Shown here: piece by piece, positions 14,073 to 45,821 of the stretch
How the letters are laid out: every line of letters begins with the position of its first letter
How positions within the stretch are numbered: the first letter of the stretch is position 1
Source: Candidatus Babelota bacterium
GTDB taxonomy: Bacteria; Babelota; Babeliae; Babelales; GCA-2401785
Length of the DNA stretch: 50,381 bases
Assembly: GCA_016871815.1 (NCBI GenBank)
Contig: VHBT01000005.1
Coordinates: 1-50,381, forward strand
Direction: 5' to 3'
Position numbers and translations under genes: made by a program
Notes under the pieces: generated by a model
The model's input: only the letters and a program-made list of their open reading frames with translations
Databases searched by the model: none
Told to the model about the DNA's origin: nothing

Positions 14073-14095
14073 TTTTCTTTCACAAAAAACAGCCC

Positions 14096-16282
14096 CTAGC
14101 TGTAAGCTATTGCTCCATACACGTCCATCATTCCACCCGCCAGCAATTCAACATACAAACCACTAGTTGTGTCGAACACGAGAGCCTCTGCCCTAACAGC
14201 CCCCTCGGCGACAACTGTAACTTTATCATCAATAACCACAACTCCCGTTTGCAATCGTGGCGCCGTCATCGTTGCATACAACGTACATCCACTCAAATAC
14301 AATCTTGAAGTTTGATTTGCAAAAGTTAATTGCGTCTTAGAAGGAGCTACTGGCCCAGGAGTACAAAAACCAGATGAATCGTAACTAAAGGTAACATTTC
14401 GATCAACAAATAATGTTGATGCCGATTGGATAGCCATTGTGCCGTTTGATGAAAACGCAAATGTATACCCTTTCCCCTTCAAATAAACATCATTGTAAAT
14501 ATTAATGCTTCCTGCAGACAGGGTATAATTGCCAGATAAATTAAGATGCGTATTTCTTAAATTAATTACTCCTGAATGATCTGCACACCGAATTAAATTT
14601 GATGAAGCAACATAGGAATTAGTTGAATCATATAAACCCGTAATTACATCTGGTGTAACACCACCACTCAGACCCATAACATGAAGATCTTGCAAGTTAA
14701 CCGTTACACTTTGTCCAACTGCACCGGTACCCAACATGATACCAACCTTATTACTGCCCCCAAGCCCCGCAAACGAAAGATTCCGACCATTTCCTCGAAT
14801 CGTGGATACACCCTCGCGTCCTGTAAACGACCAGGTATAAGAAAGATCTTCGTTATCCCCAAGCTCAATAGTGACATTATTCCCAAAAACAATCGATGCA
14901 TTTGACAGTAATGTAACCGCTTGTGAATTAAAATCTTTAAGCACTATGTTTTGCAACGTAACCGTTTTTCCTGCAGCAACAGATATAGATCCCGCCTGAG
15001 CATCTCCTCGAGCAAACTGCATGGTATAACCACCACCGTCCCATGTTATATTTGAAGCATTTGCTCCTCTAAAGTTCAGAACACGATCTGGAACACTAAA
15101 TCCTTCATTTTGACGTTGAATATACACAGAATTATCAACATAAAATTTTGAACCGTAAGTCAAACCACTTGGTCGAAGCATTAATCGACCACCATTAAGC
15201 GCAATAAGCTGTGCACCATCTGGAGACGCGGGGGTTATTGGTTTTAAATCTGGAAAAGAAAGCGTATCGTACTCTAGAGTCGTTGCATCAATTGTTGCTA
15301 TCGCTCCAACAGCAACTGTTAGTTTATTAGTTCCGGTAACAATCATTGAATTTGCGCCATAAAAATATAAATTTCCCTGGGTGAATGTATAATTTCCATT
15401 TAACTGCAAGACGGTATTTGAAAGCGAAAGCGTCGAGTTTGAGTCACACATCACAATTGTTCCTTGAATCTCAGACAGACCCTTAATAACAACATCTGTG
15501 ATGCCAAGGCCAACGCCCGCCTGAACAACAAGCGAACCGCCAAGACTCAAATCCAGCACATTTCCATTACCCTGCAAAACTGCAACACTATTATCTGGAC
15601 CGAAGTACCACATTCCCGTAAGTGTTAATGCCGCATTTAATGTCATATCTGTCGCACTTAAGAAATATAAATTTCCACCCCAAATAGATGATTTTCCGGG
15701 GAATTGCAACGTATGCGAATTGATATCAACAATTCCATCACCACACAACATACAATCATCCCCGATCGAAAGCGTGTCTTCTAAAACAACTCGACCGCCA
15801 TTCAAATAAACATCGTGATTTAATTTATTTTGAATCGAAAATTTGAGTTCTGAGGCTTGATCTTGAATGACGATTGGATCTAAGAACCGAGGAGTTCCTT
15901 CTATTAAATTATCTTGCCCAGACACAACCAACCCAACAAATGACATCCCTGGCTGCGCTCGCATCTGAGAAGCCCCTGAAAGAACTAACTGCCCTCCGAT
16001 TGCTGCCGTATTAAACTGCCCTGACCACTGAGCACTCACCCCATTTTTTTCGATCGTTCCTTCTGCAAAAACAATAGGAAGCCCTTGCAATTGAGAGAGA
16101 GCATTATCACTTATCTCCAAAACACCCTGAAAATTTTCAATAGCCGATCGAAGAACCAATCGAGCATTTGGATTTTTGATTCGCAATCGAGAATCTTTAC
16201 CCGCAAACGAAATAACAGCCCCACAAGAAAAACCTTGTAAAATACACCACACAAAAAGCAAGAACCTTAAAGCACTACGCAT
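14096..16282 (-). CDS. Secreted beta-helix-like repeat protein (paralog array member, 728 aa)
   Basis: Signal peptide. N-terminal ISFAGKDSRLRIKNP parallels LIFAGKEARLKLLDP of the next paralog. LNGGRVVLED motif and repeated NxY-F-xGxLxFxG motifs. Confidence 0.8.
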   Translation of the reverse strand: MRSALRFLLFVWCILQGFSCGAVISFAGKDSRLRIKNPNARLVLRSAIENFQGVLEISDNALSQLQGLPIVFAEGTIEKNGVSAQWSGQFNTAAIGGQLVLSGASQMRAQPGMSFVGLVVSGQDNLIEGTPRFLDPIVIQDQASELKFSIQNKLNHDVYLNGGRVVLEDTLSIGDDCMLCGDGIVDINSHTLQFPGKSSIWGGNLYFLSATDMTLNAALTLTGMWYFGPDNSVAVLQGNGNVLDLSLGGSLVVQAGVGLGITDVVIKGLSEIQGTIVMCDSNSTLSLSNTVLQLNGNYTFTQGNLYFYGANSMIVTGTNKLTVAVGAIATIDATTLEYDTLSFPDLKPITPASPDGAQLIALNGGRLMLRPSGLTYGSKFYVDNSVYIQRQNEGFSVPDRVLNFRGANASNITWDGGGYTMQFARGDAQAGSISVAAGKTVTLQNIVLKDFNSQAVTLLSNASIVFGNNVTIELGDNEDLSYTWSFTGREGVSTIRGNGRNLSFAGLGGSNKVGIMLGTGAVGQSVTVNLQDLHVMGLSGGVTPDVITGLYDSTNSYVASSNLIRCADHSGVINLRNTHLNLSGNYTLSAGSINIYNDVYLKGKGYTFAFSSNGTMAIQSASTLFVDRNVTFSYDSSGFCTPGPVAPSKTQLTFANQTSRLYLSGCTLYATMTAPRLQTGVVVIDDKVTVVAEGAVRAEALVFDTTSGLYVELLAGGMMDVYGAIAYS

Positions 16283-16410
16283 ATGCCTAAATGCTCCACA
16301 TTTTCAATATAAAAAAGCCTGTGAGAAACTAGTGCGATCAAGATGAAACAGTCAACACATCTCGAGAAGTAAAAAAGAATTAAAATCATTCATAATCATG
16401 AAAAAAATAA

Positions 16411-16487
16411 ATACCAGGAACGATCAAACGTCGAACCTCTAAGCCTCACGCAAGGCGCCCCCCGGCCAACCCTCCTTGGAGTGGTAT
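16411..16487 (-). other. GC-rich 77-nt element bounded by inverted ATACCA/TGGTAT; candidate complex terminator or structured RNA
   Basis: ATACCA (16411-16416) and TGGTAT (16482-16487) are complementary. The interior is strikingly GC-rich for this genome (GGCGCCCCCCGGCC). On the minus strand it is followed by TTATTTTTTT and lies 71 nt past the stop of the 927-aa gene. Confidence 0.3.
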
Positions 16488-16558
16488 AAAAAATAGCAAT
16501 TCTCTTTAAAAAAAATCAATAAGAGCAAAAAAGGAATATAAACAAAATGAATTATTTT

Positions 16559-19342
16559 TCACGCTTCAACATCACCATCTATGTCAAAAACCCCGCCAAG
16601 CTGAACCTTTACATCTGCGCTGGCATCAACAATTATTTTTGCGTTCGAATTGCTTAAATCTGTTTTGAATGCAGAATCGCCATCAATAAAAACCATTCCC
16701 CTGCGCAAGATAAGCCTTGAGGAATTTGATATTAAATTTGCACTATGCAAAAACAATCGAGATGTCACATCTTCCAGCACCAAACCATTACCAACTGAAA
16801 AAGGATTGTCATACACCAACGACACAGAATTATCTAAATATAATTGTGCATTTTGCCTAATGATACACCCTTCAGATGATTTGAAATTGAATTTTTTATT
16901 TGCTCCTGTAAATGTTACATCACCAAAAATATCTAAATGCCCCTGCAAAAAATCAACGTCTCCCGTCATAAAGATCGAACTCGAGGCAAATTGAATTCTT
17001 GATTGAGCATCAAGATTTGCGAGCCTTGTACCAGAAACAGACATCAAATAAGTATTTACAATACGCAACACAGCACCGCCAGAAACGCGTATGCCAGCAG
17101 TAGAAATAGCTCCAATATCAAGCATCTTGTAACGCCCATCAATCACTGTATTTCCAACAATTTCATACGTATTAGATAAAAAAGCATCATCCGCTAATTG
17201 CAAAACAACTCCTTCACCAAAAGAAATCGACGCTCCTAAGCCCAATTCGATATGCTCTGGCAAGAAATCACGCAAAACAAGATTTTCAATCAACACTCTT
17301 TTTCCCTCAGGAATAACAATTACCCCTGAGACTTTTCCAGGCATCTGTAAAACATAGCCATTTCCATTCAAAACGATCGTTGATTCAAAAGAGTTATTTC
17401 CTCTAAAAATCATTCGCCTGCTCGTTCCAAGCACCTCTGAAGTAATTAAAGAATTTCTATTTTGATCCAAAATGATATCTCCCTCTCGATACAACGCAGA
17501 AAAAGATCTCACGATGCCGCCATTTAAAGATACATAATTATTGTCATCTGCAATTGATGGACGAATATTTCTAACGTCTGGAGATGACTGCGTATCGTAT
17601 AACACCGAAATGCCGTCAACAATTAACTGAGCATCATTATCAAACGATAAAATGTTGGCACCTGTCACAACCTTTGAAGACACGTTTGAAAATTTTATCT
17701 TTCCGGTAGAAAAGGAATAACTACTATCTAAATACAAATCAACATCAATAAATGATGCCATCGCCTGCGTTCCCAAAAAAGACAATTGCCCCGAAGATTG
17801 ACCAAGCCCCTTTAAAACCATATTTATTAAACGAACTGTTTTTTCATTGTTTACAATAAATCCACCCAAAGAGCTCATTTGAACAACAGATCCAGAACCA
17901 CCAAAGGTACAATTGCCTATACATTTAATAGGATACGTTAACACCGAATCTCCACCAAACATAACATAGGTATCATCATCAAATAAAACACGGCTTCCAA
18001 CACCCAATGAAATATGTTCAGGATAAAAACCCTCAAAAGAAATATTCTTGAAAATCACCGTCTGACCATCTGCCACAGAAATAACAGGTCTTTTTACTTG
18101 CGGAAATTTTAATGAAAAACCTTTGCCATCAAGAGATATTGGTTGCGGACCAGGCAAGGAAAAACTCATAGTTCTATTCACGGTCAAAAATTCTGATTGG
18201 ATCAAGATATTCGATCGATTTGAATACAGGAGAGCAGGTCCAGATGCGTCTTGTACTTTTGCCAAAATCCTTGCACCCGCAATAGATTGAATATTTTGAG
18301 TCCCTGCAACAATCCCCACAAAATTAGATGCCATTAATGCATCAAACATAAAATCAACACCATTTAAAACCAATACAGCTTTATTAACAAAACCTAAACT
18401 ATTTTCACCAACCACGACCCTAGATGATTCAGATCTAACCTCAACAGATCCATAGGAAAAAGTAAAACTAGAATTCAGCTCAAGCAAAGATCCAACAAGG
18501 ACCAATCGCGAATCATCATTTCCTAAAATAATTTTACCCGACCCCAAACCCCTCAACGTAACATTCTTAAGGATAAGCTGATTTCCAGGTGCAACAAACA
18601 ATGATCCATTTGTTATATCAAGAACATTATCTGCACCATCTATAATTGACATTCCTTGAGACGAACTAAATGTTAATGTTCCACTTACCTCTACACATTC
18701 TCTCAACTGCAAAATAGAAAGATCTTTCAAAAATAATGTGCTCAATTCTGTTTTTTGCTCAGGCAGTGTCAAAATATTAAATTGCCCATCGACAGAACCC
18801 CTACCAACCAAACTAGCCGCCTGAGCAAATTGTAAATCTTGCCCAAGAATAACCTGTCCTCCATTTAATAAAACAGACTGATTTAACTGATTAACAAGTG
18901 ATATCCTCACAGAAGTATTCAAATCAGCTAATCGTATAGGATGATTAAAGAAAGAAGCACCCTGAATTTCGTTTCCCTGTCCTGAAATATAGATGGGCAA
19001 TAGAACACTAGTACCATTTAAACTTATTACATGATTTCCAGATAATCTTAAGACATCACTACTCTGCGGATCAAAAACACCTGAAAAATCGCCACATGCA
19101 TCAATTCCCTCAATGCAGCCATTCTGAAAAATAATCGTGGCAGAACCCTGAATTAAATCAGCTCGAGAATTTCCGCGACACAGCGTTCCACTAAATCCTT
19201 CTATCGGTGTGTTAACAATAAATTGAGTCGCCGGATCTAATAATTTTAAACGAGCTTCTTTTCCTGCAAAAATAAGTTCTGCATGAAGCACAGAAGAGCA
19301 CATTAACAAGAAAAAACAGACTAAAATTTTACTATCTTGCAC
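16559..19342 (-). CDS. Secreted beta-helix-like repeat protein (paralog array member, 927 aa)
   Basis: GTG start and signal peptide ILVCFFLLMCSSVLHA. Internal ~250-aa super-repeat, e.g. FKNISFEGFYPEHISLGVGS vs IENLVLRDFLPEHIELGLGAS, 254 aa apart. Confidence 0.8.
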   Translation of the reverse strand: MQDSKILVCFFLLMCSSVLHAELIFAGKEARLKLLDPATQFIVNTPIEGFSGTLCRGNSRADLIQGSATIIFQNGCIEGIDACGDFSGVFDPQSSDVLRLSGNHVISLNGTSVLLPIYISGQGNEIQGASFFNHPIRLADLNTSVRISLVNQLNQSVLLNGGQVILGQDLQFAQAASLVGRGSVDGQFNILTLPEQKTELSTLFLKDLSILQLRECVEVSGTLTFSSSQGMSIIDGADNVLDITNGSLFVAPGNQLILKNVTLRGLGSGKIILGNDDSRLVLVGSLLELNSSFTFSYGSVEVRSESSRVVVGENSLGFVNKAVLVLNGVDFMFDALMASNFVGIVAGTQNIQSIAGARILAKVQDASGPALLYSNRSNILIQSEFLTVNRTMSFSLPGPQPISLDGKGFSLKFPQVKRPVISVADGQTVIFKNISFEGFYPEHISLGVGSRVLFDDDTYVMFGGDSVLTYPIKCIGNCTFGGSGSVVQMSSLGGFIVNNEKTVRLINMVLKGLGQSSGQLSFLGTQAMASFIDVDLYLDSSYSFSTGKIKFSNVSSKVVTGANILSFDNDAQLIVDGISVLYDTQSSPDVRNIRPSIADDNNYVSLNGGIVRSFSALYREGDIILDQNRNSLITSEVLGTSRRMIFRGNNSFESTIVLNGNGYVLQMPGKVSGVIVIPEGKRVLIENLVLRDFLPEHIELGLGASISFGEGVVLQLADDAFLSNTYEIVGNTVIDGRYKMLDIGAISTAGIRVSGGAVLRIVNTYLMSVSGTRLANLDAQSRIQFASSSIFMTGDVDFLQGHLDIFGDVTFTGANKKFNFKSSEGCIIRQNAQLYLDNSVSLVYDNPFSVGNGLVLEDVTSRLFLHSANLISNSSRLILRRGMVFIDGDSAFKTDLSNSNAKIIVDASADVKVQLGGVFDIDGDVEA

Positions 19343-19451
19343 AGACTACAACCGATTTTTTTTCCCAAACAACATGCGAGTGCATGGTATCCAGGACCGG
19401 AAGAATCACGCAAGATATTATAACCCGTAAATTACGAAGGCTTGATCTTTT

Positions 19452-22262
19452 TCAATAATTTACAACCTCACCAACAACTTCTAATGTAGCTTTATAATCA
19501 ACTTGAATATCAAATGTTTTATCGTTTATCAAAATGCCAGAAGACTCAACAGCACTTCCGCCATCAAGCACACAATGCCCAAATAATTTCATCAGTCCAG
19601 AATGAAGTCTCATTATATTTTTTCTTACGACTAAAGTTGCATCATACAAAATCAAAACCGAAGACTTATCTTCAAAAACAATTCTACCTCGATCTTCAGG
19701 CGCAAATAAAAAAGTTGATCCTTGATAAAAAGAGACACTGGACTGTCGCTTGATGGTACATAAGCCTGACGATAAAAAAGCAAAGGTATTTTTATATGTT
19801 GTTATAAAATTTGAACCCTGAAAAATCAAATCACCGTTCAAGATGGAATAATCTTTATCCAAAAAACACTCCATATCCTGTAAAACACATTTAGCTCCAA
19901 ATGATAGATCTACAGGAGTTAATTCATTTGAAAGACCTCCAAATTTACCATTTTTAAATGTCACCGTAGCCCCAGAAGCAACAGAACAGCTAACTCCTGG
20001 CTCAAATCGAAGATCATGTCCCTGTAAGTCAAAAATGACGTTTCCTGTAATGTTCATAGGAAGAGACAAAACAATATCTCTATTTAATTTTATAACAACC
20101 CCATCGCCCAAAGAAATTGAAGAATTTTTTTCCAAATTAAATATTTCACAGGAAAAATCACGAAATTCAATATTGCAAAAATGAACGTTTTTATTAGCTG
20201 AAACAAAAATGGATGGTTCAGGAAGATACGGCAAGATAAGTGAATACCCATTTCCCGTAACAGTGCACTCATCTCCCGATCCAAGAATACTTAAATGACG
20301 CTGACTTGAGATAGCCTCATCATGTTGCAGCACATACTCACTTGTTGTTATTTCAAGACTTCCCTGTTCTTGAACATCCCCAACAACCCTAACGGCACCT
20401 TCTTGTAAACATTGTATATTCAGCCCATCATGAGATCGTGGTTGAATATTAGCAGTATCTGGAAACGCCAATGGATCATAAAAAAGATTTACGCCATCAA
20501 CAATACAAACACCTTTTTTTATACATGAAAAAGTATTTTTTCCGGTAACAACAAAAGAATCACTCCCTACAAATTTCAGAACACCCTTTTCATGGTCATA
20601 GTTATCAGAAAGCAACAACGTTACATTCTTAAAAATTGCTGTGGATGTATCCGACTCAAAAACAAATCGTCCATAATTATTTCCAAGACCCGCAATTGTC
20701 ATATTATGAAATGTTACAGTTGCTCCACTTCGAACAAATATTTTTCCATAACCAACTAAATTTAACGCTTCACCAAAACCTGAAATCGTAACATTTCCAT
20801 CAATCGTAAGAGTATAATTCAAATCAACGGTACGGCTTATATTTAATAAAGCATTATCACCTAAAGCAAAATTTGAATTAGGATCCAATTTTATAGACGC
20901 AGGAGAAAAATTATTAATCTCCACATTTCTTAGCACAGCAGATTTTCCAGTAGGAACATGAATCAACCCAGAGTCAACCCCTACATCAACAAAATTAAGT
21001 ATTAAATTTGTTCCATCAAGAATTAATGAATTAGATTTTAGGCCTCTATAAAAAAGCTTTCTTTCTTTTGTTAAATCAAATCTTCCAGACCGAACAGAAT
21101 ATGAATTATCTATTGTCAGTGATAAATCAGCATAAACCTTGCTAATCGAAACAACTTTTCCGCCATTTTTAACAATTATCTCAGCAGGCTCTATCAATTG
21201 AATGCCGTTATTGTTAGTCGATGATAACGGATCAAAAAAAAGCGAAATCGCATCTACTAACAATTTACATTCTTCGTTAAAATAACAAACTCTTTCTCCC
21301 ACTATTACTGTAGAATTACGACCTATAAATGAAAGATTACCCCTTGAAAAATAATAATCTGTCGCCAACTCAAGCGTACACCCAATAAAAGTCAGAGAAG
21401 CTGTCGAATCCTGGAGAATAATTGCGCCCTTGCCCAATTTTTTAATATTTACATTTTCCATAGTCAATGAACAACCTGAAGCAATATACACTGTTCCACC
21501 TAAAGACAGATCAAGATCGCAGCCCTGACCGGCAATAAAAAAACTTTCACGCGCTCCATTCTCTGCGGAGAAAGTAATTTTGCCAGAAAGAGACAACGTA
21601 TCCTCAAGCACAAGCCCCCCTGATTGAACAAAAACTACTGATCCTTGCCCAACAGACCCTCCCAACGAGAGGAACAATGATGCACCATTTAAAATTACCG
21701 TCCCTGGCCCTTGTATGGTTTTTCCATTATCCATTCGTAAAGAAGACAGAAGGGTCAAACGCCCCCCATTAAGTGAAATACTCGAAAAAAGTCTATTTTC
21801 AAGATATAACGACAGAGAAGATCCTGAATCGCGCAAAAAAATTCCCTCTCGCGCGTCAATCCAACCAGAAAGAACAACCCCCCCACCCAAAATTGAGATT
21901 TTTTTTAATAAACAACCAGCATCGCCAGACAGGCTGTCTCCATTTTGCATAAAAAGCTCACCCTGAAGACTTGGATCAAAAGAACCAGAAAACGTTCCAC
22001 TCAAGCCCCCAATTTCGATTTTCCCATCCTTCAAGGTTAAAACACCACCCCGCAAGGCATTAGTGCCGGGAATCGTTGCATCAACAGATCCACCCAAGAC
22101 AGATAACGGTTGATGTATCAAGATCCCAGAAGAGGGAGTTAAAAAAGCAATTTTACTTTCGGCACTGGTTACAATTATTTTAGAAGAAAGCGAAAACGCA
22201 AAACCTATAAAAAAGCTTAAAAAATATAGTTTTTTTATCACAAAAGACACCCAATACTTCAT
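19452..22262 (-). CDS. Secreted beta-helix-like repeat protein (paralog array member, 936 aa)
   Basis: Hydrophobic N-terminus. LNGGRLTLLSS motif. Repeat motifs LRNVEINNFSPASIKL and FCNIEFRDFSCEIFNL. SGATVTFHNMTIAGLG and SGATVTFKNGKFGGLS. Confidence 0.8.
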   Translation of the reverse strand: MKYWVSFVIKKLYFLSFFIGFAFSLSSKIIVTSAESKIAFLTPSSGILIHQPLSVLGGSVDATIPGTNALRGGVLTLKDGKIEIGGLSGTFSGSFDPSLQGELFMQNGDSLSGDAGCLLKKISILGGGVVLSGWIDAREGIFLRDSGSSLSLYLENRLFSSISLNGGRLTLLSSLRMDNGKTIQGPGTVILNGASLFLSLGGSVGQGSVVFVQSGGLVLEDTLSLSGKITFSAENGARESFFIAGQGCDLDLSLGGTVYIASGCSLTMENVNIKKLGKGAIILQDSTASLTFIGCTLELATDYYFSRGNLSFIGRNSTVIVGERVCYFNEECKLLVDAISLFFDPLSSTNNNGIQLIEPAEIIVKNGGKVVSISKVYADLSLTIDNSYSVRSGRFDLTKERKLFYRGLKSNSLILDGTNLILNFVDVGVDSGLIHVPTGKSAVLRNVEINNFSPASIKLDPNSNFALGDNALLNISRTVDLNYTLTIDGNVTISGFGEALNLVGYGKIFVRSGATVTFHNMTIAGLGNNYGRFVFESDTSTAIFKNVTLLLSDNYDHEKGVLKFVGSDSFVVTGKNTFSCIKKGVCIVDGVNLFYDPLAFPDTANIQPRSHDGLNIQCLQEGAVRVVGDVQEQGSLEITTSEYVLQHDEAISSQRHLSILGSGDECTVTGNGYSLILPYLPEPSIFVSANKNVHFCNIEFRDFSCEIFNLEKNSSISLGDGVVIKLNRDIVLSLPMNITGNVIFDLQGHDLRFEPGVSCSVASGATVTFKNGKFGGLSNELTPVDLSFGAKCVLQDMECFLDKDYSILNGDLIFQGSNFITTYKNTFAFLSSGLCTIKRQSSVSFYQGSTFLFAPEDRGRIVFEDKSSVLILYDATLVVRKNIMRLHSGLMKLFGHCVLDGGSAVESSGILINDKTFDIQVDYKATLEVVGEVVNY

Positions 22263-24282: not shown

Positions 24283-24357
24283 AAAGCGGCGCATTGCTTG
24301 CTACACTGTACCAACCAAAAAATGGTACTTGGAGCCTAGTAAATGCGCCGCTTTTTT
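24283..24357 (+). promoter_or_regulatory. 13-bp perfect inverted repeat (terminator-like) whose 3' arm contains the start codon of the next gene
   Basis: AAAGCGGCGCATT (24283-24295) is the exact reverse complement of AATGCGCCGCTTT (24342-24354). Inner hairpin GTACCA (24308-24313) / TGGTAC (24323-24328). GGAG lies in the loop, the ATG is at 24343-24345, and a T-run follows at 24352-24357. Confidence 0.55.
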
Positions 24358-26256
24358 ATTTTAAAAAAACACCTATTTTTATTTATTATCGCCAGCCTTG
24401 CAACTTTATTTTGTGCTGGATATCACAAAACAATAACAAATAAAACCGCCTCTAGAGATATCTACCCCGTGGTTATTATCGGGGGAGGAATTGGCGGACT
24501 CAGTGCAAGCATTTTTCTTGCCTCAAAAAATATTTCCTCTTTGGTGCTAGAGGGAGAACTGCCTGGAGGTCAACTTACACTTTCAAGTTCTGTGAGAAAT
24601 TGGCCAAGCATACCCGATCTTCCCGGCGAAGAAATTGTAAAACAAATAAGAAATCATGCAGAAAAGCTAAATGTAAGAATAATTTCTACAAACGCCTCCG
24701 AAATTTCCCGCCAAGGTGATTATTTTCATATCAGCTCACCCCAAGGCATATATAAAGCATTTAATGTTATTATCGCAACCGGAACAACCCCAAAAAAATT
24801 AAATATTCCGGGAGAAGATACCTTCTGGGGTAACGGCATCAGCGATTGTGCTATCTGCGATGGTGGATTATATCCCCAAAAAACAGTTGTAGTTGTTGGT
24901 GGTGGGCAATCCGCAATTGAAGAGGCTTTACACCTCAGCACGATCGCTAAAAAAGTTATTATTGTGGTGAGAAAATCAGCGCTCAAGTCTCACGAAGCGT
25001 CCCGTCTTGCATCACTAAAAAGCAAACCGAATATTGTGATTGTATACGATTCTATTGTTACCAGTGCACAAGGAATAGACTCAAAACTTAACTCAATCAC
25101 TACCTTGAATATAAAAACACAAGAACAGTCAACGCTTGCAGTTGATGGTCTTTTTTTAGCGATTGGCTCAACCCCCAACAGTAACCTGTTTAAAGATTTA
25201 GTCGAATGTGACTTGAATGGATTTATCAAAACAGGTCGTTATGGAAAAACATCCTGCAATGGAATTTTTGCTATCGGTGATGTTACCCACTCAAAATACC
25301 GACAGGCTATTATGGTTGCAGAACATGCAGCAATAACGGCAAACGCTCTTGCGGCCCAAATCGATAAATCAAAAAGCTTTTATGCATATTCTGAAGATAA
25401 TGCCACTATTTTAGCGCCACAAAAAATAGGGCCTCAAACAGCTAAAGCCGATTACCATGTAGTATTTGTAAATGCAAACGCAGCCTCATACACTGCAGCA
25501 ATCTACCTACAACACGCAGGTTACAAAACAGCAATCATTAAAACATCGCAACCAGCCAACCACAATATTATTTGGCCCGGAGATAATTCAGCAACTCAAA
25601 AAACTATTTTGAATTCGTTAGAAAAACACGCGCTTTCAGCAGGATCTAAACTTATAGAAGATACAGTTGTTAATGAAGACTACAGCGCATATCCGTATGC
25701 CTTAGAGTTAAAAAAAACAAGTAGCATGGTAACAAGTTATTGTCTTATTGACGCTGAAAACGGAGTGCCTTTTGATTCTGAAGGACTCCAAGAAGTTCAA
25801 TTATGCGGCGTTGGGGCACGAATTGGATTACAAATTAGTGAAAAACTTCAGGAATACCCTATCATTCCTACTAACCAAACTTTCGAAAAAACTTCCACCA
25901 ACGTTGAACAACCTAAAAAAATAACTCGACCAGCAACAATTCCCCATATAAAAACAATTAAAGAACTCAACACCATCCTAAAAGAAAATGATGCAGTCTT
26001 TATCGATTGCTATGCTCATTGGTGTCCACCCTGCAAAAGACTTAAACCACTGCTCGAAAAAATATATGCCGAAAATAGGTATCCTCAAGTGTATATTGCC
26101 TGCGTAGATGTTGACGAAGCTCAGGAAATTGCCGAAGAACTAGGCGTGCAAAGTCTTCCAACACTACTCAGCTTTAAGCGCTCTAAACTTACCGGTAAAT
26201 CACTTGGGTTTAAAAACGAGTCAGAACTCAGCCTGTTAATCGAAAAACTTTTATAA
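24343..26256 (+). CDS. trxB: Thioredoxin reductase / degenerate FAD-domain remnant / thioredoxin fusion with N-terminal hydrophobic export or anchor segment
   Basis: VVIIGGGIGGLSAS (FAD GxGxxG), redox CAICDG (nt 24847-24858), VVVVGGGQSAIEEA (NAD(P)H GxGxxA), GIFAIGDV. Middle part VVFVNANAASYTAAIY resembles a TrxR N-terminus with a ruined GxGxxG. C-terminal Trx fold has WCPPC (nt 26020-26034). N-terminus MRRFFILKKHLFLFIIASLATLF. Confidence 0.85.
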   Translation: MRRFFILKKHLFLFIIASLATLFCAGYHKTITNKTASRDIYPVVIIGGGIGGLSASIFLASKNISSLVLEGELPGGQLTLSSSVRNWPSIPDLPGEEIVKQIRNHAEKLNVRIISTNASEISRQGDYFHISSPQGIYKAFNVIIATGTTPKKLNIPGEDTFWGNGISDCAICDGGLYPQKTVVVVGGGQSAIEEALHLSTIAKKVIIVVRKSALKSHEASRLASLKSKPNIVIVYDSIVTSAQGIDSKLNSITTLNIKTQEQSTLAVDGLFLAIGSTPNSNLFKDLVECDLNGFIKTGRYGKTSCNGIFAIGDVTHSKYRQAIMVAEHAAITANALAAQIDKSKSFYAYSEDNATILAPQKIGPQTAKADYHVVFVNANAASYTAAIYLQHAGYKTAIIKTSQPANHNIIWPGDNSATQKTILNSLEKHALSAGSKLIEDTVVNEDYSAYPYALELKKTSSMVTSYCLIDAENGVPFDSEGLQEVQLCGVGARIGLQISEKLQEYPIIPTNQTFEKTSTNVEQPKKITRPATIPHIKTIKELNTILKENDAVFIDCYAHWCPPCKRLKPLLEKIYAENRYPQVYIACVDVDEAQEIAEELGVQSLPTLLSFKRSKLTGKSLGFKNESELSLLIEKLL

Positions 26257-35513: not shown

Positions 35514-36191
35514 ATGGAGATCTTTATGAACAGCTGGATGCTCTCAATTTTAAAAGAAACTTACCCTTTCACACTTCCAGCTCTTGGATACTCAGCAGAA
35601 AGCCTTGAGCCTCACATCGACAAAGAAACGATGGAAATACATCACAAAAAACATCATCAAGCATACATCAACAACCTGAATGCTGAGTTAGAAAAATTTT
35701 CCGAATTTCAGTCAAAATCACTTTTTTGGCTTGTCTCTCACTATGAAAAGCTTCCCGAAAATTTATCCAAGGTCGTCAGGAATCATGGTGGCGGCCATTT
35801 AAATCATTCATTATTTTGGCAAATGCTCTCTCCGCACAAGCAAACCCCATCTCCAACTCTTGAGAAAATGATTACAACTAATTTTGGATCGCTTGAAATT
35901 TTTACTACCCAATTTAACAAAGCTGCTCTTTCTGTTTTTGGAAGCGGTTGGGCTTGGTTATGCATCGATAACGAAAAAAAACTTTCTATCATGGCAACAC
36001 CAAACCAAGATAACCCATACTCAAAAAACCTCACCCCAGTGCTTGGAATCGATGTATGGGAACATGCATATTATCTCAAGTACCAAAACCAAAGAAATGC
36101 CTACATTTCTGCGTTTTGGAACATTATTAATTGGGAAAAAGTAGAAGACGCTATTCACCTAAGCCCACAAATAGCAATCGGAAAATTTTAA
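35514..36191 (+). CDS. sodA: Superoxide dismutase, Mn-type signature
   Basis: FTLPALGYSAESLEPHIDKETMEIHHKKHHQAY, GGGHLNHSLFW (Mn-type), FGSGWAWL, ATPNQDNP, DVWEHAYYL. The start is uncertain: ATG at 35514, 35526 (GGAG 6 nt upstream) or 35538. Confidence 0.93.
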   Translation: MEIFMNSWMLSILKETYPFTLPALGYSAESLEPHIDKETMEIHHKKHHQAYINNLNAELEKFSEFQSKSLFWLVSHYEKLPENLSKVVRNHGGGHLNHSLFWQMLSPHKQTPSPTLEKMITTNFGSLEIFTTQFNKAALSVFGSGWAWLCIDNEKKLSIMATPNQDNPYSKNLTPVLGIDVWEHAYYLKYQNQRNAYISAFWNIINWEKVEDAIHLSPQIAIGKF

Positions 36192-36442
36192 TGTTTTTTT
36201 TAGATTTGATTGCTGGAATTATAATTGGCGCAATTCACGGAATGCTTCAATTATTACAACACACAAAAAGTAGTCCAGATCGATATCTCACAATCTTTGT
36301 TTTGCGATTATTGGTTACCGGAAGTCTTTTTTTATGTGCTCAAAAATATTTACAACCATCCTATCTATTGTTTTTTTCTGGATTCATTTTTAGTTTAATA
36401 CTCACCACACTACTTGCCGTGCAAGGATCCAAATGGAACTAA
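36191..36442 (+). CDS. Small 3-helix membrane protein, ATP synthase protein I / AtpZ-like by position
   Basis: The ATG overlaps the sodA stop (TAATG). 83 aa with three hydrophobic segments. It lies immediately upstream of, and overlaps by 10 nt, the a-subunit gene. The track start at 36131 lies inside sodA and is rejected. Confidence 0.45.
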   Translation: MFFLDLIAGIIIGAIHGMLQLLQHTKSSPDRYLTIFVLRLLVTGSLFLCAQKYLQPSYLLFFSGFIFSLILTTLLAVQGSKWN

Positions 36443-37263
36443 ATATTTTTAGCTTTCACACAAAAAATTTTTTTCAGCAGTTAAATCTAACTCATCCCTT
36501 TTGGACGCTTCATCTTGATACCGTGATATGCACATGGTTTGCCATGTTCGTACTTTTTATACTCTGCAGCACAATTATTTATTTTATAAAACACAAACCA
36601 GAATCTATGGTTAGCTTTATATCAAAAAGCATCACTAATATGCTGGTATCAACAACAAGCGAAACTCTAGGCGAGTTTGACGAAGAGTCGTTCCATACTT
36701 CATTTAGTCTCTTCTTCTTCGCGTTCTCATGCACATTGGTAAGCCTTATTCCTCACGTAGAAGAAGCAACCAGAGATGTAAACACAACATTTGCTCTGGC
36801 CCTGATCAGCTTTTGTTTTGTTCAATACAAAGGATTTAAAGCTCATGGATGGCATCGCCTCAAAGAATACATACAACCCTTCTTCTTTATGCTTCCAATG
36901 CACGTCATCGGAGATATTGCAAAAATAACCTCAATGTCATTTCGATTATTTGGAAACATTCTTGCTGGTTCTGTAATTTTACAACTCATGTTCCTTGTGC
37001 TCTCATTATTTTTTCCCTATTTATTTATATACTTTGCAATTCTTACGATCCTATCGCTGGCAATATCCATGCTTAAAAGCAGAATTGAGTTTGTTGCTCA
37101 TCTAAAACCATATCTCAGCGCGTTATATGTTGTTTTTCTTATTCCCGCAGGACTGCAATTATTCTTTGGATTGTTTGAAGGTTTGTTACAATCTGGCGTG
37201 ATTGCATTATTAACGCTAACCTACACTGGTCTTGCAACTCAAAAAGAATCTGAAGAGAATTGA
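36433..37263 (+). CDS. atpB: F-type ATP synthase subunit a
   Basis: Hallmark MSFRLFGNILAGSVILQLM (essential Arg motif), 5-6 hydrophobic helices, 276 aa. Confidence 0.9.
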   Translation: MELNIFSFHTKNFFQQLNLTHPFWTLHLDTVICTWFAMFVLFILCSTIIYFIKHKPESMVSFISKSITNMLVSTTSETLGEFDEESFHTSFSLFFFAFSCTLVSLIPHVEEATRDVNTTFALALISFCFVQYKGFKAHGWHRLKEYIQPFFFMLPMHVIGDIAKITSMSFRLFGNILAGSVILQLMFLVLSLFFPYLFIYFAILTILSLAISMLKSRIEFVAHLKPYLSALYVVFLIPAGLQLFFGLFEGLLQSGVIALLTLTYTGLATQKESEEN

Positions 37264-37266
37264 TAT

Positions 37267-38235
37267 ATGAATGCGATGCTCTCTTTTTTAGCACATTTCG
37301 GTCACTACGCTGGTGCATTTTTAGCCATTTCTCTCAGCGCTATTGGTGCAACACTTGGACAAGGAATGTCTTTTTCTGGAGCCGCACAAGCTCTTGCTCG
37401 TCAACAAGAAAGCGTCAAAGTTATTCGTCAGCTACAATTTCTGGGTCTTCTTCTAATCGAAAGCGGACCAGCACTGGGTCTTATTTTTGTTATTATTTTT
37501 TTATTTGGTAGCAGCTTACCTGCAACACTTCCAATTGGTCTGGTAAAAGCAAGTATTGGACTTTCATTTGGACTAAGTTCTCTTTTTTCGGGAATTGCAG
37601 CAGGACAGGCGGTTAATGCTGCTGCTCACGCATCTGCACGACAACCATTTATTGGTAAAAAACTTTCAACAATCATGTTGCTGCTAGAATCTTTTGCTGA
37701 AGTCTCAACAATCTTTAGCTTCATCATCGGATTAATAGCATTTTCTAAGCTCTCGCCCGACTTGACCCTACAAGAAGGAATTAAATTATCTGCCGCGTGC
37801 CTGACTTTAAGCGTTGCAACAATTGGCACAGGAATTGCACAAGCAGCCCTTGCGCGATCAAACATTTCTGCGATCGGACTCAATCCGTACATGTATGGGA
37901 AAATTAGCACATTCACATTCATCACAAGTGCATTTATCGAAACCCCAATTTTTTTCGCATTCTTTTTATCATTCAAATTATTTTACACTTCAACAGCTCA
38001 CCTTTCTGCAATTGAATGTCTTTCTTTTTACGCAATCACCCTTGCAAGTGGACTTGGCTCTGCAGGACCTGCGATCAGCGCAACCCTTGTATCGTCAAAA
38101 AGTGCAATTCAAGCAGCTTTGAATCCAAGCCAATACGAAAAGCTCAGAAAAACGACGATTTTCGCTCAATTTTTATTAGAATCAGGAGCTATCTATTCTC
38201 TTCTTCTTTCGATTATTATCTCGATGATTCTTTAA
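37267..38235 (+). CDS. atpE: Four-fold fused F-type ATP synthase c subunit (8 predicted TM helices)
   Basis: Four ~80-aa units, each with a Gly-rich helix, a polar loop (ARQQES, ARQPF, GLNPYMYG, ALNPSQ) and a helix with a buried Glu at aa 65, 145, 225 and 305. No in-frame stop between units. Confidence 0.85.
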   Translation: MNAMLSFLAHFGHYAGAFLAISLSAIGATLGQGMSFSGAAQALARQQESVKVIRQLQFLGLLLIESGPALGLIFVIIFLFGSSLPATLPIGLVKASIGLSFGLSSLFSGIAAGQAVNAAAHASARQPFIGKKLSTIMLLLESFAEVSTIFSFIIGLIAFSKLSPDLTLQEGIKLSAACLTLSVATIGTGIAQAALARSNISAIGLNPYMYGKISTFTFITSAFIETPIFFAFFLSFKLFYTSTAHLSAIECLSFYAITLASGLGSAGPAISATLVSSKSAIQAALNPSQYEKLRKTTIFAQFLLESGAIYSLLLSIIISMIL

Positions 38236-38259: not shown

Positions 38260-39399
38260 ATGCATATTATTTATTTCATAACAAAGCTTGAACTTGGCGG
38301 AGCTCAAAAAGTCTGCCTCGCGCTTCACTCTGGCCTTAAAACAAAAAACAACGTCAAAACCTCACTTATTTCAGGAAACGAAGGCGTTCTTGTTTCTGCA
38401 ACAAAAGATGATTCCTCTGTAATTCTTCTTTCTACGCTCAAAAGAGAACTCTCGATTTCGGGTATTTGGAATGAAATAAAGACTTTTTTCGATCTTATAA
38501 AAACACTTAAAGAGCTATCAAAAAAATATGCAGGCAAAACAATTATTCATACCCACAGCACAAAAGCTGGAATTCTTGGTCGTTGGGCAGCTTTTTTTGC
38601 AAGAATCCCGATCAGGGTTCACACCGTTCACGGATTTGCGTTTCATGAACACCAATCATACCCAAAATGGATAGTTATTTTCTTATGTGAATGGATTACC
38701 TCACTTATTACCACTCACTTTGTCCTCGTTTCTAGCTACGATCAGTCTATCGGAATGAAGTTTTTTCCTTTCTTTAAATCAAAAAATTCAATTATTAGAG
38801 CGGCAGCATTCATTTCCCCACCGCAATACGTTCATAAAAGCAAGAAACAATTCTCTGAAGAAAATCCATTAATAATCGGAAGCGTAAGTTGCTTTAAACC
38901 CCAAAAAAATATAAACGATCTTATTACCATTTTTAGTAATTTCGTTCATAAAAACAACGTACACGCTCGCCTTGAAATCATTGGCGACGGAGAACTTAAA
39001 AAAAACCTTCAAGATCTTGCAGGCACTCTAAAAATCTCTCATCTCGTTTCTTTTGTTGGCTGGCAACCAAACATCTCACCATTTTTGGCTCGTTGGGATC
39101 TTTTTGCCTTAACATCTTTGTGGGAAGGACTTCCGTGCGCCATCATCGAAGCTCGACTTTTTAAACTCCCCGTCATCTGCTACAACACTGGTGGCATAAA
39201 AGATGTAATAGAAACCAACAAAAACGGGGCTTTAATTACCCAGTTTGATACAAAGTCTTTTGAATCATTTTTATTAAAATGCTACAACGATCAATCGTTT
39301 TACGAACAAATCGCAAATAACAACGACGACCTTTCTAATTTTACCGTAGAGGCAATGGTCAACCAGCATCTAGAACTCTACAAAAAATTATCCGAATAA
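38260..39399 (+). CDS. Glycosyltransferase, GT4 (GT-B fold) family
   Basis: N-terminal IIYFITKLELGGAQK. C-terminal EGLPCAIIEARLFKLPVICYNTGGIKDVIETNKNGAL (EX7E-type region). Confidence 0.85.
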   Translation: MHIIYFITKLELGGAQKVCLALHSGLKTKNNVKTSLISGNEGVLVSATKDDSSVILLSTLKRELSISGIWNEIKTFFDLIKTLKELSKKYAGKTIIHTHSTKAGILGRWAAFFARIPIRVHTVHGFAFHEHQSYPKWIVIFLCEWITSLITTHFVLVSSYDQSIGMKFFPFFKSKNSIIRAAAFISPPQYVHKSKKQFSEENPLIIGSVSCFKPQKNINDLITIFSNFVHKNNVHARLEIIGDGELKKNLQDLAGTLKISHLVSFVGWQPNISPFLARWDLFALTSLWEGLPCAIIEARLFKLPVICYNTGGIKDVIETNKNGALITQFDTKSFESFLLKCYNDQSFYEQIANNNDDLSNFTVEAMVNQHLELYKKLSE

Positions 39400-42685: not shown

Positions 42686-44326
42686 TTAAACCTGTGCTTC
42701 TTGCGCTTCCAAGTCGGCAGTCGCCGCAAGCGTTTGTTGCGCAATAAAACTTCGCGGTCGATAGTCTCTCATGATTTCTCGCGCCATCGCACGCGCACGC
42801 TGACGAACCGTCAAAGGATATTCATGATTAAAAGCCAAAAATTGCTGCAAACTATATTCCATGAAGTTCCACGGACTTGCTCCATTATTTTCTTGTTTAT
42901 ACCCATCAATTTCTCTAAGTCCTCTTGTTCCAAAATTACAAACACCCAGACCTAAGAAATCCGGATCCTGCTCTGCTAAATTAAACAATTGTTGAGGCGT
43001 AAGTTGATTAATCAAATTCTGCGCTGCCTGCAGTTGATCATTAATAACATTAGGCGGAATAATAATCATTCGTCGAATATAATTTAATTGCCGCTTACGA
43101 GCAGCAACAGGGTTGTCTAAACGTCCTGGACCATCGTCCCAAAGTTGATGCGTATACCGAAAAAGATCGTACGCACATTCAGCACCTCCAAACAAATTGT
43201 ATGCTTTTAATAACAAATCATGATGATTAAGTTGATCTATTTTTTGACGCAACCCAGAAGAAAGTTGATCAAAAAGATGTTTGGGTATAAATCCTGTAAC
43301 CGGGAAAAACATTAGATTTTTATCCCACCCCCAACTAAAATCCTCATATTTACAAAAAACATCTTTGACGGGTTGAAATACCTTTGGCAGCTTTTCAAAA
43401 GCGCGATTTATTTGAAATTGCCCGCTTTTGTGAAAACGATATATTTTGTATATCGATGTTGCAAAGTAAGATACAAGTCCTAAAGGAATAAATAACAATT
43501 TAAAAAAAGACTCCATGCTATTAAACATGAGTCGATCAATCCCAGATGCAAAAAAAGCACCCGGCAAAAGAATGTCATTGTTCTGCCTTAAAAAATGATA
43601 TCTTGGTTCATCTGGATTTCTAACTTCTTTTCTAAAATACTCTGAAGTCGACTTTGCTATCCCATTCATAGAGGCACCCATTCCGCAAAGTAATAATACA
43701 TTTTGAGTGCAATACGCAGGAAGTTTTACATCGTGCTCTGCGTTTGGGCGAAATTGCAGATATATTTTATCTGCTTTTTTCAGCACTGAAAGCTCTTTTT
43801 TAACCTGCTGGTGAACTTGATAGACTTCATAGAACTGCCAAGCCATAAGACTCAAGAAAACCATTGCCAAAAATGCTTTTTTTACTGAATTATCTGGGTA
43901 GTGCAACATCATCATCGCTGCGACAACCGCCAACTGCCCGCCCTGCGCAAACGATTTTACCCCATGCAAAAAACCTCGCTTACCCAAAATCGATGGCAAC
44001 ACGTGATACATCATGCGAGAAGCAAAAAGCAAAGCGATCGTAGTTTTTGTATTAAAATCACGATGATCTCCAACAATATTTCGACCCAAATTCAATCGTT
44101 GAAGCAATAAAGATTCGAGGATCGAAAGGCCAACCATCGGTGCAAAAATCTTTTTTGTATTTTCGCGATTCCAATCAGCAGATTGAATTCCAGTGGCAAA
44201 ACCCCCCCAAAACTCCACCGCATTTTTTGCGTATGCTGTTATTTGCAACGAATCTTTTGTTGAACCAGCCGCAGACAGCACGGAAGAAAAAAAAGCTAAA
44301 AATAATACAAAATATCGATTAATCAT
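42686..44326 (-). CDS. Polytopic membrane ORFan, paralog A
   Basis: I prefer the ATG at 44326 (MINRYFVLFLAFFSSVLSAAGS). The track extension to 44395 overlaps the upstream gene. Shares DFNTKTTIAL, NLFGG, SL(Q/R)xFLAF and a C-terminal LEAQE motif with the upstream paralog. Confidence 0.7.
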   Translation of the reverse strand: MINRYFVLFLAFFSSVLSAAGSTKDSLQITAYAKNAVEFWGGFATGIQSADWNRENTKKIFAPMVGLSILESLLLQRLNLGRNIVGDHRDFNTKTTIALLFASRMMYHVLPSILGKRGFLHGVKSFAQGGQLAVVAAMMMLHYPDNSVKKAFLAMVFLSLMAWQFYEVYQVHQQVKKELSVLKKADKIYLQFRPNAEHDVKLPAYCTQNVLLLCGMGASMNGIAKSTSEYFRKEVRNPDEPRYHFLRQNNDILLPGAFFASGIDRLMFNSMESFFKLLFIPLGLVSYFATSIYKIYRFHKSGQFQINRAFEKLPKVFQPVKDVFCKYEDFSWGWDKNLMFFPVTGFIPKHLFDQLSSGLRQKIDQLNHHDLLLKAYNLFGGAECAYDLFRYTHQLWDDGPGRLDNPVAARKRQLNYIRRMIIIPPNVINDQLQAAQNLINQLTPQQLFNLAEQDPDFLGLGVCNFGTRGLREIDGYKQENNGASPWNFMEYSLQQFLAFNHEYPLTVRQRARAMAREIMRDYRPRSFIAQQTLAATADLEAQEAQV

Positions 44327-44339
44327 TCTGAGCCAATAC

Positions 44340-45821
44340 TTATAAAGCGGGAGTCGCCGCAACCGGTTCTTGGGCTTCCAAGCGAGAAACAACACTTAAT
44401 GTCTTGTGTGCTAAATAACTTTTTGGCTTAACCTGAAGAACTTTTCGAGCAAAGACCCGTGCGGTATTCCGCATACGAGCGTCATACCCATCAGCAAATG
44501 CCAAAAACGCTCGTAGTGACTGCTCCATAACGTTGTAATTCTCATTTGGGTTAATATCACTAATATTTACAAATGAACCCGCAACATCAAAAAATGTATT
44601 CCAATATCTTCGATCAACTGTGCCCTTATATTTAATTTCTCCATCTCTGAACCGTGCAAGCAGCTCTTTATTCGATAATGTTTTAATTTCTGGTGAATAT
44701 GAACCATCTCTGTTTACAGCAAAATATCTTGCGCAAGAATTAATTTCTTTTGGATTATCTTGATAATACCATTCCTGCGTATAATCAACCAACCCCTGAG
44801 AATAATATCCGCCAAACAAATTATGCGCATTTATTAATAAATCCTGTTCATTCAATAACGTAATTTGTTCTTGCAAGTCCCAAGAAAGCAGATCAAAAAG
44901 ATCTCTTCTTATAAATTTTTGCTTAAAAATAGCAGGCGAACCAGTAATTTTTGAAACAACGGTAAAAAATAAGGAAGTAAGCGATCTGAGTAAAAGAGCC
45001 GCCCCTTTACCCTCTAAGTAAATACGACTCAAAGGCTCAAAGAAATTTTCGTTCAAAACTCTAGTCTTATAATTCTCATAATCCAATAACCAATTCAACA
45101 AACCATACTTACAAACTTCTTCTTCAAAATGCCTCTTATAACATTCTCTGGTCGTCCAAAAATTAAACCATCCATGAAAAAGCGACTGAAGCTCAAGTCG
45201 AGGAACAAGAACCAAATCTTGATCCCGATCAGACCCGTCAAATACGTATGATCGGTGTTTTAAGGGTAAATGTAACTCTTTGTTTAATGTTTTTATTTCC
45301 TCATCCAATCTGGTTAAAACGCGTTGAATAGCGTACGCTCGCCAAATAATTGTCGCCAATCCAGCAACAAGCACCGCAATACGAACGCGCTCATCTTTTT
45401 TGGGGATCTTTCCTTCCCCAGGAATCATCTGCGAAAGAAGCAAACAGCACAACGCAAATTGCCCGCTCTGAAAGAATGATTTACAACCATCCGCAAGAGA
45501 ACCGCCTCTCATGAAAACGGGGACAACGTGATATAATAATTTAACGCAAAAAAAGAGTGCGATAGTTGTTTTTGTATTAAAATCCTTATCACTACCAACA
45601 ATTTCTCTTGAAAGATCAGTTTTTTTTAACACCAGGCCCTCAAGAACAGAAATACCAGCCTGTGGCAAAAAAACCGTTTTCCAATTTTCTTTTACTTTCC
45701 AGTCCCGTAGCTGAATACCCGTTGCATGCCGAAAGACAAAATCAGCAGTCCAATCTAATGAACCTGCAGCAGACTGCACAGAAGAAAAAAGAGCCAAAAA
45801 TAACAAAAAACAACGTTTCAT
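44340..45821 (-). CDS. Polytopic membrane ORFan, paralog B
   Basis: MKRCFLLFLALFSSVQSAAGS signal. Collinear similarity to paralog A throughout. Confidence 0.7.
   Translation of the reverse strand: MKRCFLLFLALFSSVQSAAGSLDWTADFVFRHATGIQLRDWKVKENWKTVFLPQAGISVLEGLVLKKTDLSREIVGSDKDFNTKTTIALFFCVKLLYHVVPVFMRGGSLADGCKSFFQSGQFALCCLLLSQMIPGEGKIPKKDERVRIAVLVAGLATIIWRAYAIQRVLTRLDEEIKTLNKELHLPLKHRSYVFDGSDRDQDLVLVPRLELQSLFHGWFNFWTTRECYKRHFEEEVCKYGLLNWLLDYENYKTRVLNENFFEPLSRIYLEGKGAALLLRSLTSLFFTVVSKITGSPAIFKQKFIRRDLFDLLSWDLQEQITLLNEQDLLINAHNLFGGYYSQGLVDYTQEWYYQDNPKEINSCARYFAVNRDGSYSPEIKTLSNKELLARFRDGEIKYKGTVDRRYWNTFFDVAGSFVNISDINPNENYNVMEQSLRAFLAFADGYDARMRNTARVFARKVLQVKPKSYLAHKTLSVVSRLEAQEPVAATPAL

Follow-up and report, generated by a model that had tools for sequence, protein, structure and literature searches.

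A DNA stretch of 50,381 nucleotides (hereafter the window; contig VHBT01000005.1 of assembly GCA_016871815.1, Candidatus Babelota bacterium) was found to carry an uninterrupted open reading frame (ORF), 37267-38235 on the + strand, which runs from ATG to TAA and encodes four tandem F-type ATP synthase c-subunit hairpins in a single polypeptide of 322 aa. This fused gene, termed c4 here, is conserved across the phylum Dependentiae (TM6/Babelota), and the fusion is old, intact and under strong purifying selection along its whole length. In the most probable reading, c4 serves as rotor subunit in a complete F1Fo enzyme with dispersed genes, which probably works as an ATP-driven ion pump. Multi-hairpin rotor subunits as such are already known, and databases have listed the gene, at the latest since 2015, under the plain label of a subunit c; apparently new is a four-hairpin F-type subunit that is conserved across a phylum. 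A full-text literature search, with most subscription journals outside its coverage, returned no published description of a natural four-hairpin F-type bacterial c subunit.

The size of a typical c subunit (a single hairpin of ~70-90 aa) is not matched by c4. An earlier note on this DNA had read the protein as four c-type hairpins, each with its carboxylate, and had proposed a Pfam search and a structure prediction as checks; both bear this reading out. PF00137 (ATP-synt_C) hit c4 at four distinct places (E 1.6e-29, 102 bits versus a cut-off of 24). Cut into four 80-aa units, the protein was aligned without gaps to the c subunits of E. coli, I. tartaricus and spinach chloroplasts, whereby E65, E145, E225 and E305, all encoded by GAA (positions in Table 1), shared a column with E. 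coli D61, I. tartaricus E65 and spinach E61. An AlphaFold2 model computed with 14 homologues as input (predicted local distance difference test score, pLDDT, 89; predicted template modelling score, pTM, 0.85) consists of eight long helices forming four hairpins, with turns at residues 45-47, 125-127, 205-207 and 285-287 and linkers at 81-87, 161-167 and 240-247. The turns read RQQ in hairpin 1, RQP in hairpin 2 and LNP in hairpins 3 and 4. NCBIfam c-subunit models scored far below their cut-offs in 16 of 17 cases (e.g. 89.8 versus 128).

Compared with each other in register, the four units share 15-23% amino-acid and 34-40% nucleotide identity, and no DNA repeat with the period of the unit was detected by Tandem Repeats Finder (TRF). 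In profile-profile comparison, all six hairpin pairs were homologous in register with probabilities of 98.6-99.6%, which is far beyond chance.

Homologues were collected in several ways. A word-indexed search returned 13 of them (322-323 aa, 44-89% identity), and in 14 sequences of the window's clade, with identity down to 44%, the four Glu residues were invariant. A profile search of 1.84 billion representatives yielded 123 clusters (50% identity) at E <= 1e-30, and a second one 422 clusters (90% identity) at E <= 1e-10. Most of the best 150 clusters listed from the first of these searches were 308-329 aa long and collinear with c4 over all four hairpins. Several relatives bear source names such as 'ATP synthase F0 subunit C [Candidatus Dependentiae bacterium]'; a 1.096-Mb contig contains one such relative. 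Scanning metagenomes with a narrower c4 alignment gave 244 c4-encoding stretches. The search of related genomes for fused orthologues that the earlier note had suggested thus found more than 400 clusters at 90% identity, mostly of 308-329 aa. Down to ~20% identity, homologues are collinear with c4 and equal in length, and the fusion is accordingly ancient, neither recent nor made by assembly, as had been claimed.

For an estimate of selection, c4 was compared with its 89%-identical orthologue in locus L002. The nonsynonymous and synonymous divergences (dN and dS) were 0.081 and 1.42, i.e. dN/dS ~0.06, with values of 0.02-0.10 hairpin by hairpin. Together with intact c4 genes in hundreds of independent assemblies, these low ratios show that the fusion is old and constrained throughout. 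The same breadth bears on a trivial origin of the ORF, in which loss of stop codons would have joined four neighbouring c genes or a tandem array would have been collapsed. Tandem c genes occur in some bacteria, which is the sole ground for considering such an artefact. It is extremely improbable, as the same frame of 308-329 aa is found in hundreds of independent assemblies (NCBI, JGI, ENA, Logan) and in the genome of a Babela isolate, and units of such low nucleotide identity cannot be collapsed repeats.

The number of carboxylates differs between family members. Of 267 full-length sequences aligned, 149 have EQED at the four carboxylate positions (hairpins 1-4), 48 EQEE, 42 EEEE and 5 EEED, with rare other patterns in 23. 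Hairpin 4 has Asp or Glu family-wide, and in hairpin 2 Gln takes the place of the carboxylate in 210 of the 267 (~80%). The earlier claim that the fusion kept all its carboxylates therefore stands for the lineage of the window and some other deep ones; family-wide it does not, and with 210 Gln-bearing members the family as a whole does show the usual site loss. In a neighbour-joining tree with midpoint root, one large clade (218 tips, including Babela) is formed by the Gln forms, and the forms with Glu in hairpin 2, among them the window's clade of 23, form a basal grade. The simplest reading of this crude tree would be that four sites are ancestral and that one site was lost once.

How the hairpins multiplied was addressed by profile scores. 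Hairpins 3 and 4 were the closest pair (115) and hairpins 1 and 2 the most distant (73), which fits a late duplication giving rise to hairpins 3 and 4. A simple (1,2)(3,4) scheme is unsupported, hairpins 1 and 2 being the least similar pair, as is tandem doubling from c2 to c4, which predicts that hairpin 1 is nearest to 3 and hairpin 2 nearest to 4. The stepwise duplication that had been suspected from the loop pattern (ARQ, ARQ, LNP, LNP) hence agrees with the scores for the second pair of hairpins and disagrees for the first.

Table 1. Coordinates of c4, its hairpins and the two genes preceding it in the window.
Feature	Position	Strand	Description
Small membrane protein, AtpI/AtpR-like	36191..36442	+	83 aa, ~3 transmembrane helices (TM); start overlaps sodA stop (TAATG), end overlaps atpB start by 10 nt
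atpB, F-type a subunit	36433..37263	+	276 aa; PF00119 E 9.9e-28; Arg171 (36943-36945) in RLFGNILAG
c4, fused c subunit	37267..38235	+	322 aa, four tandem F-type c hairpins; start 3 nt past atpB stop
Hairpin 1 (aa 1-80)	37267..37506	+	GATLGQG helix; turn R45-Q46-Q47; Glu65 37459-37461; Ser66
Hairpin 2 (aa 81-160)	37507..37746	+	turn R125-Q126-P127; Glu145 37699-37701; extra Glu141 one helical turn before
Hairpin 3 (aa 161-240)	37747..37986	+	turn L205-N206-P207; Gln192; Glu225 37939-37941; Thr226-Pro227
Hairpin 4 (aa 241-322 + stop)	37987..38235	+	turn L285-N286-P287; Glu305 38179-38181; Ser306; Tyr310

Around c4, the genes are arranged as sodA, small membrane protein, atpB, c4, GT4 glycosyltransferase, acylphosphatase and bamA. 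That c4 directly follows an F-type a-subunit gene had been recognised before and is borne out by the PF00119 match, the Arg171 motif and the 3-nt spacer. The best PDB sequence matches of the atpB product are chloroplast and bacterial a subunits, and it is 31% identical to Babela AtpB. When six-frame translations of 91 sequences were scanned for the RLFGN-type motif (regular expression R[LP][FLMIV][GA]N[MILV]), 78 occurrences were found. The trio of small gene, atpB and c4 is kept in close relatives, distant Dependentiae, Babela and most metagenome loci. The small gene overlaps both sodA and atpB, and the genes look translationally coupled. For atpB and the small gene, dN/dS was 0.12 and 0.19, respectively.

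The position of the small protein is held by a gene of 83-110 aa in Babela and 54 related loci. In an alignment of 22 members, the sole invariant residue was an Arg in TM2 (R39 in the window, 36305-36307). Pfam AtpR (PF12966) remained below threshold (E 0.0098, 16.8 bits versus a cut-off of 26; 4 of the 22 members match), as did ATP-synt_I. Judged from its position, size and buried Arg, the small protein is probably an AtpI/AtpR-type factor for assembly or shielding of the ring. Downstream, a GT4-family glycosyltransferase gene (38260-39399, +) starts 9-24 nt past c4 in the window, L002, L006 and L007. It follows c4 in the window's clade and in one distant Dependentiae genome, not in L009 or Babela, and could be co-transcribed with c4.

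A gene of the same build is present in the cultured Babela massiliensis. In the supplement to PMC4378268, Babela_gene_637 has 320 aa and 8 predicted TM, is preceded by AtpB and an 84-aa three-TM protein and was recorded, in 2015, merely as "AtpE". The window protein was aligned to it collinearly with 28% identity over 304 residues (E 9e-29); off-register alignments scored far lower. All eight F1Fo subunits are listed in the Babela COG table, with one each of AtpA, AtpD, AtpG, AtpC, AtpH, AtpF and AtpB. In Babela, gamma is a lone gene at 491 kb and a-c4 is located at 297 kb, ~190 kb apart; the atp genes of Babela are dispersed and do not form one operon. With Babela gamma as query, 665 gamma homologues were retrieved at E <= 0.001, and among the 120 listed three were named Candidatus Dependentiae. 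One of these three, P0312, and c4 P0289 originate from the same two assemblies with the same longest contig (1,496,855). In both Dependentiae lineages checked gamma was a lone gene; its neighbours (L091-L094, Babela) are tsaE and an NYN/YacP gene.

The R-Q-P turn of F-type c subunits contacts gamma and epsilon. Across 147 family members, the turn of hairpin 2 was nearly invariant (Pro127 in 147, Arg125 in 140, Gln126 in 129). From this turn, the F1Fo COGs of Babela and the co-occurrence of gamma and c4, the most probable conclusion is that a complete F1Fo exists, with c4 as its rotor. Alternatively, the a subunit, c4 and the small Arg protein could form a stand-alone Fo-like module without F1, e.g. 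a gated ion channel or a rotor coupled to a process different from ATP hydrolysis. Such a module would agree with a-c4 never adjoining F1 genes in ~90 loci and with the conserved unit being the three-gene cluster small-a-c4, often followed by the GT4 gene. It is nevertheless unlikely, since Babela possesses the full F1Fo COG set with scattered genes, gamma and c4 occur in the same assemblies, the F1-contacting turn is nearly invariant and an uncoupled a/c pair would leak ions.

Several points weigh against c4 as the rotor of a complete F1Fo across the phylum. No F1 or b/delta genes were found in the window or within ~10 kb of a-c4 in ~90 related loci. Likewise, Walker motifs of F1 alpha/beta subunits were found neither in the window nor in 869 kb of flanks of these loci, and those of V-type A/B subunits in none of the related loci; as the atp genes are scattered in Babela, the flanks say nothing about the remaining genome. 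For the lineage of the window itself, F1 is extrapolated from Babela plus one further lineage. Assembly and size of the ring, working direction, coupling ion and role of the small protein are all inferred. Placement of the window in or close to the Dependentiae is based on homology and synteny. Among the GTDB species representatives scanned, the only c4 match was L001 (JBEITS010000126.1, 2246 bp), from a bin named Campylobacterota; this label is probably due to a mis-binned contig. L001 carries an a-c4 pair with 57% identity to the window's clade. The sole NCBIfam equivalog passed by c4, and that narrowly, is TIGR01260, whose score (48.1 versus 43.95) is summed over two of the four hairpins.

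Finally, the Babela COG table holds two COG0636 assignments, with one gene visible in the accessible annotation, so that a second c-type gene is possible. If a single-hairpin atpE elsewhere were the working rotor, c4 would be a relic or redundant copy. This is very unlikely considering the dN/dS of ~0.06, which is low in every hairpin, the conservation of length and carboxylates over more than 400 clusters and the tight coupling to atpB through the 3-nt spacer. Moreover, no other c-like (single-hairpin) ORF was present in ~0.93 Mb of related loci. The count of two may instead represent two footprints of the double-hairpin COG profile on one four-hairpin protein.

Every rotary ATPase has its ion/ATP ratio set by how many ion-binding hairpins make up the c-ring, and what fixes the hairpin number is still debated. 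With c4 as F1Fo rotor, several copies of the 8-helix protein that resulted from the ancient fusion of four c hairpins would form the ring. The hairpin number would then be a multiple of four, i.e. 8, 12 or 16. The ring would rotate against AtpB, where Arg171 would force ion release and rebinding at each passing Glu. As the window's c4 has four Glu, ions per ATP would equal hairpins / 3, and for rings of 8, 12 and 16 hairpins would amount to 2.7, 4 and 5.3. Gln in hairpin 2, as in most of the phylum, would leave three sites per four hairpins and lower the ratio by 25%, to 2, 3 and 4, respectively.

The enzyme would most likely pump H+ or Na+ at the expense of ATP and in this way keep the membrane energised. 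In the Dependentiae examined, a tricarboxylic acid cycle and an electron transport chain are absent and ATP/ADP translocases are present, and their ATP synthase has been proposed to hydrolyse ATP and thereby energise the membrane (PMC4776705, PMC6561590). The pump reading is based on this lack of a respiratory chain and on import of host ATP. A lower ion/ATP ratio allows a steeper gradient, which would explain the spread of the three-site form. A more specific version is possible but doubtful: c4 would be the sole rotor subunit of the Dependentiae F1Fo, in a ring of exactly three copies (12 hairpins, in keeping with the three-fold symmetry of F1); an EEEE ancestor would have moved 4 ions/ATP, and one E-to-Q exchange in hairpin 2 at the base of the Babela-containing clade would have changed this to 3 ions/ATP. 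If true, the three-ion gear would be a stronger ATP-driven pump, and the phylum would contain a natural F-type analogue of the change of gear by which V-ATPases are proposed to have arisen, with both gears still alive.

Regardless of the copy number, fusion to c4 would restrict the ring to those three sizes. Since fused and diverged hairpins occupy non-equivalent positions, each site can evolve separately, and the family displays this: deep lineages have four sites, whereas a single large, derived clade has three. It thereby offers a natural test of how the build of a rotor sets the ion-per-ATP ratio. The host organisms are obligate intracellular energy parasites that import ATP, which makes their enzyme a candidate for conversion of an F-type synthase to a dedicated pump along the route proposed for the V-ATPase. 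In databases, the four-hairpin build is concealed behind hundreds of entries labelled 'ATP synthase subunit c', and with models of a single hairpin, e.g. the NCBIfam equivalogs, it mostly falls short of the cut-off.

With regard to the coupling ion, the principal Na+ ligands of c subunits are Gln/Glu32, Glu65 and Ser/Thr66 (PMC2359735). The full ligand set is present in hairpins 1 (Q, E and S at positions 32, 65 and 66) and 3 (Q, E, T). Hairpin 2 has A, E and V, with Ser at +2 and the extra Glu141, and hairpin 4 has A, E and S together with the equivalent of Tyr70. The likeness of hairpin 4 to the Na+-type ES..Y signature of I. tartaricus, which the earlier note had pointed out, is thus a literal match; its equivalent of Gln32 is Ala, however, and the complete sets lie in hairpins 1 and 3. 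In the large Gln clade, 97 of 210 members have Glu at position 32 of hairpin 1, i.e. a two-carboxylate motif. As the ring sites are formed by neighbouring hairpins, H+ and Na+ cannot be told apart by sequence alone. E141 of hairpin 2 (37687-37689) is a near-invariant second Glu in the window's clade; other c subunits usually have Gln there.

For comparison with known rotors, the c4 model was searched with Foldseek. Best matches were the double-hairpin c1 of A. woodii (4bem_J), E. hirae K (2bl2) and V-type c, each of which covers half of the query (TM-score over the query, TMq, <= 0.44); for 2bl2 and V-type c, the probability was 1.00 and the TM-score over the target (TMt) 0.70-0.86, over two of the four hairpins. 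Acetobacterium woodii c1 (F/V-hybrid rotor, PDB 4BEM chain J), the best structural and third-best PDB sequence match, resembles c4 in being a covalently multiplied hairpin of a bacterial F-type enzyme. In its structure, the second hairpin reportedly has Gln for the ion-binding Glu, as does hairpin 2 of most Dependentiae c4. Unlike c4, c1 has two hairpins, and one copy of it joins single-hairpin c2/c3 in a mixed ring; c4, by contrast, is apparently the sole c gene, and the window protein keeps every carboxylate.

V/A-type proteolipids are likewise products of duplication and fusion, of which some keep all sites and some lose them (PMC2359735). Multi-hairpin forms listed there are the K subunits of M. 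jannaschii (three hairpins) and M. kandleri (13) and the two-hairpin E. hirae NtpK and eukaryotic V-type c; a natural four-hairpin form is absent from that list. These proteolipids work with a V/A-type a/I subunit and an A3B3 head; in contrast, the partner of c4 is an F-type a subunit (PF00119), and the c4 hairpins score best against F-type c models.

Each c4 unit shares the Gly-rich inner helix, polar turn and mid-membrane carboxylate of canonical F-type c subunits (Bacillus PS3, I. tartaricus, chloroplast). Different from these, c4 is one chain of four non-identical units, with RQP in hairpin 2 only. Laboratory fusions of E. coli c (c2, c3, c4) are said to show that linked hairpins can form working rings and that fusion constrains stoichiometry. 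Linked c hairpins were also engineered as a single-chain c10 of Bacillus PS3 (PMC8809890). Such fusions are constructs of identical units, whereas the c4 of Dependentiae is natural, diverged and phylum-wide.

In the N-ATPase operon (atpDCQRBEFAG), the genes for a and c are closely preceded by the one for AtpR, a small membrane protein that has a conserved Arg; at the c4 locus, a small protein with an invariant Arg and sub-threshold similarity to AtpR occupies this place. The two-carboxylate Glu32/Glu65 motif of N-ATPases also recurs in hairpin 1 of the 97 c4 relatives mentioned above; hairpin 1 of the window has Gln32. Unlike the N-ATPase operon, the c4 locus has no flanking F1 genes and no atpQ. 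An N-ATPase origin of c4 was rejected because the operon differs and because TIGR03322 (51.7 versus 130.85) and TIGR03306 (80.6 versus 302.1) scored far below their cut-offs.

Outside the Dependentiae family and the window, further multi-hairpin F-type-like c proteins were encountered (P0110, P0126, P0133, P0137, P0099, P0111, P0167, P0147). Seven hairpins in P0110 and five in P0126 all carry Glu; P0133 and P0137 have five hairpins with Glu in the first only, and P0099, P0111 and P0167 have four hairpins with one or no carboxylate. P0120 (968 aa) is a 13-hairpin c protein with Trp at positions of expected Gly (GLWVWIWEW for GLGVGIGEG), Trp making up 9.4% of its residues. It looks like a gene with UGA as Gly codon (code 25, Gracilibacteria/Absconditabacteria-type) that was translated with UGA as Trp, and may represent, in bacteria, what the single-chain rotor of Methanopyrus is in archaea.

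The rest of the window agrees with published traits of Dependentiae (PMC4776705): it encodes a superoxide dismutase, a thioredoxin reductase-thioredoxin fusion, a beta-propeller protein, Omp85, a polyamine ABC transporter and many large orphans. No ribosomal or transfer RNA genes were found in the window. The fusion protein (24343-26256, +; 637 aa) combines thioredoxin reductase with a C-terminal thioredoxin domain. Four successive ORFs of 359, 728, 927 and 936 aa (12993-22262, -) had no Pfam match and are mutual paralogues (21-27% identity, E down to 2e-75). Two adjoining orphan paralogues of 569 and 493 aa (42686-45821, -) share 39% identity N-terminally (E 4e-35), and homologues of this pair occupy the same place in L002. 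GC skew was negative in every 2-kb bin of positions 1-50381 (-0.04 to -0.27), regardless of gene strand; this uniformity suggests that the whole contig belongs to a single replichore, in which + is the C-rich strand.

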